From IMG/VR virus record IMGVR_UViG_2700989164_000009: a DNA stretch of 5,847 bases; one strand, written 5' to 3'. Shown one piece after another: positions 1 to 517 of the stretch. Below the pieces are notes generated by a model. The model did no database searches and was not told the DNA's origin. It saw nothing but the letters and a program-made list of their open reading frames with translations. The number at the start of each line of letters is the position of its first letter. Position 1 is the stretch's first letter. Position numbers and translations under genes: made by a program. This stretch comes from a virus. Its lineage: Duplodnaviria > Heunggongvirae > Uroviricota > Caudoviricetes.

Positions 1-52
1 AAAAATATCATCAGATGGCTGCTTAAAAAAGAACAAATGGTAGTGTCCGCTA

Positions 53-517
53 TTGCCAGTACACCTCAAAGAGAGTAAATCAAACCGCGCAATTGGCGTT
101 GCGCTGAATGATACTGCATGTCGCGTATTGAAAAAACAAATCGGAAATCATCACCGTTGGGTATTTGTGTACAAGGAAAGCTGTACCAAACCAGACGGAA
201 CGAAAGCGCCAACAGTAAGGAAGATGCGGTATGACGCAAACACAGCCTGGAAAGCGGCGCTGAGACGGGCTGGTATTGATGATTTCAGATTTCACGACTT
301 GAGACACACCTGGGCAAGTTGGCTGGTTCAAGCCGGAGTCCCGTTATCAGTGTTACAGGAAATGGGAGGCTGGGAGTCTATCGAAATGGTTCGTCGATAT
401 GCTCACCTCGCACCTAATCACCTTACCGAACACGCACGGCAAATAGACTTGATTCTGAACCCATCGGTCCCAAATTTGTCCCAGTCAAGAAATAAGGAAG
501 GTACTAATGATGTGTAA
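53..517 (+). CDS. int: Tyrosine integrase (phage integrase family), C-terminal catalytic domain only; the 5' part lies upstream of the window and the frame is interrupted at 41-43
   Basis: Translation carries the tyrosine-recombinase catalytic signature: K in 'HLKESKS', 'FHDLRHTW' (H-x-x-R), 'GGWESIEM', and 'MVRRYAHL' (catalytic Tyr), with lambda-Int-like spacing. Gene ends 15 bp before the att core and is transcribed toward it. Codon 53-55 is TTG immediately after an in-frame TAG, so the listed ORF start is not a real initiation site. Confidence 0.88.

Follow-up and report, generated by a model that had tools for sequence, protein, structure and literature searches.

What interrupts the reading frame of the integrase gene, int, at the left edge of this DNA? 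The window, that is, the whole stretch of 5,847 nucleotides that was analyzed, belongs to a caudoviricete virus record (IMGVR_UViG_2700989164_000009). Translation of positions 1–540 in all frames confirmed the core of an earlier note on this DNA: the int frame (frame 2) is closed by a TAG at 41–43, after which it stays open to the TAA at 515–517, and the one frame that is open from base 1 is unrelated. This is frame 1, which is open over 1–75 and stopped by the TAA at 76–78; its extent contradicts the statement, made in the same note, that no single frame is open through 1–52. Frame 3 is stopped by a TAA at 24–26, and in the three-frame translation no frame joins base 1 to the int frame. A TTG described as the first codon after the TAG is indeed present, at 53–55, as the fourth codon after it; the first is TGT (44–46). 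From this TTG the open reading frame (ORF) listing calls an int-frame ORF of 154 aa (53–517) with K, HDLRH, W and RRYAH motifs. The features assigned at the left end of the window are the following.

1–68, plus strand: right end of an IS600 element (IS3 family) in forward orientation, 95–100% identical to thousands of annotated E. coli IS600 copies.
3–26, plus strand, frame 3: last seven codons, KYHQMAA, and TAA stop (24–26) of the IS600 OrfB/OrfAB transposase.
53–517, plus strand: chimeric ORF of 154 codons from the ORF listing, called 'site-specific integrase' by gene callers.
69–71, plus strand: AAG, right copy of the 3-bp IS600 target duplication (int nt 716–718).
69–517, plus strand: 3' fragment of the tyrosine-recombinase gene int (int nt 716–1164; stop at 515–517).
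532–577, minus strand: att core, equal to the 3'-terminal 46 nt of thrW (tRNA-Thr, anticodon CGT), at the junction of the int remnant with an SfX-type prophage.

Two unrelated and highly significant homologies meet in this region, with an exact switch from one to the other at 68/69. When bases 1–700 were compared with phage genomes, the int and attP regions of phi458, SfIV, SfI, SfV and SfII matched with about 98% identity over bases 69–577 (97.8–98.8% at the nucleotide level), all matches starting at query base 69. Mapped on the SfIV gene (1164 nt, 387 aa; L002, 786–1949), base 69 is int nt 716, the second base of codon 239, so that the fragment consists of the last two bases of codon 239 and residues 240–387 of 387. 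To the left of the switch the homology is to an insertion sequence. Against the E. coli complete genomes, bases 1–700 matched thousands of additional places, and a search with bases 1–80 explained them: it found that 1–68 (in some copies up to 1–80) is 92–100% identical to sequence in 2889 of 5426 E. coli genomes, the features under these matches being annotated as 'IS3-like element IS600 family transposase', and alignment to an annotated IS600 copy showed unrelated flanks past base 68. In a three-way alignment of the window, SfIV int and an IS600 copy, IS600 extended to ...ACACCTCA at 68 and int resumed with AAGAGAGTAAATC at 69. The expected int sequence GCGCCGGGTGGCATGGATAAACCCGG is replaced in the window by IS600 sequence; a continuous int across 38–78 would read ...AACCCGGAAGAGAGT... 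instead of the IS600 junction. The frame discontinuity is no chance feature, since it coincides with the homology switch, whereas the TAG at 41–43 and the open frame over 1–75 are incidental features of the IS600 sequence, unconnected with int. The frame-1 peptide (KNIIRW...) bears a weak resemblance to the 'SNIINLEW' that follows box I, and it was considered whether it could be a piece of Int displaced from upstream. This was rejected, as the peptide has no Pfam match and its DNA is IS600. The IS600 end codes for transposase in frame 3 and makes no use of the frame of this peptide.

The assignment of bases 1–68 to IS600 draws on several independent traits. The terminal inverted repeat of the element ends ...ACACCTCA, with a terminal ...CCTCA at 64–68, and read as its reverse complement, TGAGGTGTACTGGCAATAGCGGACACT, it can be set against the left end of the copy in locus L003, TGAGGTAGCCTGAGTTTAACGGACACT; both agree with a 5'-TG...CA-3' terminus. 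The repeat is imperfect, as seen when the reverse complement TGAGGTGTACTGG...GGACACT is compared with the left end TGAGGTAGCCTGA...GGACACT. The annotated IS600 transposase gene in L001 ends 26 bases into the match and its translation, which terminates in ...FREKYHQMAA, is that of frame 3 of the window. This gene is flagged 'programmed frameshift' and Pfam rve (DDE transposase) domains are found in related loci; its last 7 codons alone lie in the window. Identity to annotated copies with a defined terminus, the inverted repeats, the transposase end and a 3-bp target duplication therefore all identify the element as IS600, the duplication resting, for the window element, on sister genomes, with its left copy outside the window. 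What distinguishes this copy from a standard IS600 is its extent: the window contains no more than its last 68 bp, and window-identical genomes have lost its left 84 bp to another IS3-family element.

Sister genomes provided the complete arrangement. In L003 (CP058589.1) the order is int nt 1–718, an IS600 of 1263 bp and int nt 716–1164, with AAG duplicated. The left junction there reads ...AACCCGGAAG/TGAGGTAGCC and the right one ...ACACCTCA/AAGAGAGTAAATC, and the intact gene reads AACCCGGAAGAGAGTAAATC; a simple insertion of this type, with the 5' half of int retained, would show ...CCCGGAAG/TGAGGTAGCC on its left side. A 3-bp target duplication is expected for an element of the IS3 family, and the duplicated AAG is the mark of simple transposition. 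Chromosomal loci were retrieved with the exact 421-aa glucosyltransferase encoded in the window and with the 154-aa ORF, taking about 20 kb or 12 kb of context from 20 chromosomal places; the 11 complete or near-complete chromosomes examined were drawn from an index that lists the 154-aa ORF in 76 blocks. The 31-base right junction (IS600 end followed by int nt 716 onward) had an exact match in 12 fetched loci, corresponding to 11 genomes, and the left junction (int up to nt 718 followed by the IS600 left end) in six loci (L003, L013, L016, L017, L019 and L020). The uninterrupted target was matched exactly in SfIV (L002), L004, L005 and L012. A scan of species representatives added two more complete chromosomes with the right junction, titled Shigella flexneri SFBU1023 and E. 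coli ECMA0423. Among the E. coli complete genomes, bases 1–700 were nowhere covered in one piece and the best matches started at base 60 or 69; because of this, the junction is, in that comparison, specific to the Shigella flexneri lineage.

One of the uninterrupted targets deserves separate mention. Locus L004 (CP055138.1), from an S. flexneri-type genome, contains at 7199–8362 an intact int of 387 aa whose nucleotide sequence is 99.4% identical to that of SfIV. The gtrA-gtrB-gtrX genes found in the window follow it immediately, and a short way upstream of it lies an IS600 copy that points in the opposite direction. This lineage either lacks the IS600 insertion or regained an intact int by recombining with an incoming phage.

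Taken at its full weight, this evidence makes it nearly certain that transposition of IS600 into int is what ends the reading frame at the window edge, and that the fragment is a relic fixed in S. flexneri. The course of events is as follows. IS600, an IS3-family element of 1.26 kb, entered int at nt 716–718 (codons 239–240) with duplication of the AAG target. Insertion at this point parts the N-terminal DNA-binding half and R215 from K242, H314, R317, W340 and the nucleophile Y349, so that, judging from catalytic requirements, no active recombinase would be produced. The relic is what remains of an old SfII/SfV-type prophage at thrW in the S. flexneri lineage. Genomes identical to the window have had the left 84 bp of IS600 taken over by a further IS3-family element; yaiC is the next gene there, and the 5' part of int is gone. 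The window starts to the right of the left IS600 junction, and the strain from which it derives may either have kept or have lost the 5' part of int. The thrW att beside the relic is still a landing site for incoming phages that bring their own integrase and presumably use it at this adjacent att. An SfX-type podovirus prophage (gtrA-gtrB-gtrX, P22-like tailspike) has integrated there, which yields the order int'-att-gtr.

What the insertion left of the enzyme was assessed by comparison with SfIV Int. Residues 240–387 differ from it at two of 148 positions (S366L and K379R), and the active-site residues K242, H314-D-L-R317, W340 and Y349 are all kept. The box I arginine (ATGLR215R) is absent, since R215 lies 25 codons upstream of the break and hence outside the polypeptide that carries the other residues. 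The earlier note had placed this arginine at or just before the window start, and this estimate was accurate: in SfIV, R215 precedes H314 by 99 residues, so that in an uninterrupted gene it would fall about 4 bases upstream of position 1. It had also been right that int is incomplete in the window, lacking box I, and that the original protein ran on upstream, given that int homology begins at codon 239 of 387. Residues 1–238, with the N-terminal arm-binding and core-binding domains required to recognize att, are missing in the window and also in the 6–8 kb upstream of it in L008, L015 and L021. Consistent with this, the Pfam domain PF00589 is matched in the fragment over profile positions 57–171 of 172, and in the intact protein over positions 1–171 (residues 184–355). 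Tyrosine recombinases need both arginines and their DNA-binding domains, as established for lambda Int, Cre and XerCD; for this reason the fragment is expected to be a catalytically dead remnant from which no active recombinase can be made, and the old prophage relic would be unable to excise. With the integrases of SfI, SfII, SfIV and SfV, serotype-converting Shigella phages that integrate at thrW, it belongs among the P22 Int relatives of the PF00589 family; it keeps the motifs, with 2 of 148 residues changed relative to SfIV Int, and the same att core (thrW 3' end) follows. It differs from them in lacking residues 1–238, including R215 and the N-terminal DNA-binding part, as befits a pseudogene fragment.

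The ORF that gene callers find here is a chimera: the IS600 inverted repeat supplies five codons at its start and one base of the sixth (TTG CCA GTA CAC CTC A). The exact 154-aa protein is on record in S. flexneri as a site-specific integrase (for example AAN41953.1 and ADA72697.1). That it might be a genuine short catalytic-domain protein with a function of its own, such as modulating SfX/SfI-type integrases, is a suggestion favored by its being intact, free of any residue change across many S. flexneri genomes and routinely annotated as an integrase. Yet it starts with TTG on codons supplied by the inverted repeat and is without R215 and the first 56 positions of PF00589, and its conservation is explained by recent common descent, because the strains are near-identical (99–100% DNA identity) and no selection needs to be invoked. 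An outward promoter in the IS600 end was considered as a possible driver of the chimeric ORF, and a consensus scan of bases 1–900 gave no sigma-70-like promoter match; this is weak negative evidence and lends weak support to the ORF being silent. Altogether, a functional short protein is very improbable. Equally slight is the chance of a particular version of this idea, in which transcripts that run through or out of IS600 might cover the chimeric ORF (five and a third IS600 codons plus Int 240–387), yielding a catalytic-domain fragment that interferes with or assists the nearly identical integrases of incoming SfI/SfII/SfV-type phages at the thrW att.

Still less credible is the cause proposed in the earlier note, namely that int is continuous across the window edge and carries a point nonsense change at 41–43 or a frameshift within 44–75, either real or due to a base-call error. 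In its favor, the int frame does carry the TAG and another frame is open from base 1, and the tailspike gene of the window does have a homopolymer frameshift. A pseudogene made by point mutation, however, would retain homology to its parent gene on both sides of the lesion, and here integrase homology upstream of base 69 was found neither in the DNA nor in the frame-1 peptide: bases 1–68 are the right end of IS600, standing in place of GCGCCGGGTGGCATGGATAAACCCGG. Alignment to the integrases of thrW phages gave no stop or frameshift lesion, only a homology that starts at 69. Low sequence quality has no support, as the same junction is present in all 11 complete or near-complete chromosomes examined and in the two further complete ones, and the tailspike defect, which had been taken as a linked sign, is a separate event consisting of one extra C in a run of C. 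There is as little to be said for an assembly artefact, in which IS600 read-through was chimerically joined to an intact int in a draft: both window ends do lie in multi-copy IS elements, where short-read assembly is least reliable, but the exact 31-base junction recurs in 11 complete or near-complete chromosomes from different projects and in two more complete ones, six loci of the first set have the matching left junction with the 3-bp duplication, and the arrangement is backed by bridging PCR (PMC3306764).

The transposition of IS600 into int accounts for the frame break at the left edge of the window; the sequence that follows int tells to which element the fragment belonged. Locus L022 contains a complete tRNA-Thr(CGT) at 6480–6555, on the minus strand, corresponding to window positions 532–607, and identity between the window and L022 ends at 577. 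Accordingly, no complete tRNA is present in the window, which holds only the 46-nt att core. The module formed by IS600, the int remnant and att was found in four settings. It is followed directly by thrW-proA in L016, L020 and L022, by an element with an acyltransferase gene (oac-type) in L013 and L017, by another gtr cluster with myovirus-type baseplate genes in L014, and by the gtr cluster of the window in L003, L008, L018 and L021. Judged from these gene orders, the module is independent of what comes after it, and the fragment belongs to an older resident prophage of SfII/SfV type and not to the SfX-type prophage. The proposal that the disrupted int denotes a phage that cannot integrate was thus directed at the wrong element, the module being seen also without a prophage, with the oac element and with other gtr phages. 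The order int'-att-gtr would be the attP-like junction expected for a phage landing beside an older int-proximal att, which agrees with the tandem integration shown in PMC3306764. In L009, a different integrase of 369 aa, with 55% amino acid identity to SfIV Int, lies at the far end of the SfX-type remnant, beside thrW-proA.

Beyond att, the window contains the O-antigen glucosylation cluster of the SfX-type prophage and, at its right edge, the end of a second insertion sequence.

867–1229, plus strand: gtrA, from the ORF listing, with Pfam GtrA_DPMS_TM on the identical gene in related loci.
1226–2143, plus strand: gtrB, from the ORF listing, with Pfam Glycos_transf_2 on the identical gene in related loci.
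2156–3421, plus strand: gtrX, completing the O-antigen glucosylation cluster (867–3421) of the SfX-type prophage.
5784–5847, plus strand: end of a second IS3-family element, which cuts an HNH ORF and marks the divergence from L021 and L008.

Positions 2150–3877 are 100% identical to the glucosyl transferase record of phage SfX (L05001.1). GtrX (421 aa), the serotype-specific glucosyltransferase, is extremely common in S. flexneri assemblies, with 1795 index blocks, and has no Pfam match on record. Upstream of gtrA, between 578 and 866, where Dam/OxyR-type pairs of GATC were looked for, there are two GATC sites only. In related loci the neighbors of the cluster are P22-like (tailspike head-binding domain, Mnt/Arc, gp16, gp20 and gp7). 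The P22-like tailspike gene of the window (3488–5249, minus strand) is split into ORFs of 399 and 200 aa by one extra C at 4069–4076. The run has eight C residues in the window, CP001383.1 and CP020339.1, and seven in L003, L004 and L018, where the protein is intact with 570 aa. SfX is reported to be inducible from strain 2002017 (PMC3306764), which sits oddly with the frameshifted tailspike in the genome of that strain. In the 5' end of the tailspike gene and upstream of it (5155–5260), comparison with L003, L004 and L018 revealed blocks of insertions and deletions, the remainder being 98–99% identical; this mosaic pattern suggests a recombination boundary at the head-binding domain.

The window was then placed among its closest relatives. 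Bases 1–5783 are identical to L021 (CP001383.1) and to L008/L015 (CP020339.1). Upstream, in these genomes, the end of another IS3-family element stands where the left 84 bp of IS600 would be, and beyond this element lie the chromosomal GGDEF gene yaiC and then proC; no 5' part of int was found within 6–8 kb upstream in the CP001383.1 and CP020339.1 genomes. Gene callers fuse the truncated IS600 and its neighbor into a hybrid 'transposase' of 399 aa (L008, 5400–6730; L021, 3580–4790). CP001383 is the genome of S. flexneri serotype Xv strain 2002017 (Sun et al. 2011, PMC3306764), and the same paper names the second IS3-family element beside IS600 as IS629. The conserved host genes named around attB/thrW in the legend to its Figure 2 are proA, yaiC, IS600 ORF1/2, IS629 ORF1/2 and 'the putative integrase gene (int)', and the host order is drawn as yaiC-IS629-IS600-int-attB(thrW)-proA; the arrangement was confirmed there by bridging PCR (PMC3306764). 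The same gene order and junction were found in L021 (strain 2002017), L008, L014, L018 and L022, with an SfX-type prophage at the att site in the window, L021, L008 and L018, as in the arrangement of Sun et al. 2011. The IS600-int remnant arrangement is therefore already published, common and, as a locus, ordinary. One open-access paper draws it (PMC3306764), and no open-access paper stating the exact insertion coordinate was found.

At the right edge, the window departs from L021 and L008 after 5783. Its last 64 bases agree, at 100% identity, with the end of an element that 4500 of 5426 E. coli genomes contain and that lies shortly before an IS3-family transposase gene; we take the element to be IS2-like. 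It supplies the last four codons and the stop of an HNH endonuclease ORF (5262–5798). The insertion at 5784 is specific to the sub-lineage of this strain, because CP001383.1 and CP020339.1 are without it, and compared with 2002017 nothing material differs except this presumably IS2-like element of the window strain in the HNH gene. Contigs of 5–10 kb are the most frequent setting of the exact GtrX protein, with 777 of the 1795 index blocks in which it is listed. Because both ends of the window lie in multi-copy IS elements (about 65 bases on each side), starting inside IS600 and ending inside the second element, the window is probably a short-read contig broken at repeats.

These results matter little except for annotation. 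The 154-codon 'site-specific integrase' called in many genomes of S. flexneri is what IS600 left of an old prophage gene, a truncated pseudogene fragment that should not be taken for the integrase of the SfX-type prophage itself. More generally, where a frame break is met near a contig edge in Shigella or E. coli, an IS end should be looked for before a sequencing error or a point mutation is invoked. If the chimeric ORF did, against expectation, yield an active fragment, this would influence which serotype-converting phages lysogenise S. flexneri. As it stands, the relic is a marker of the thrW site, at which serotype-converting phages accumulate and which is already described and relevant to the evolution of serotypes.
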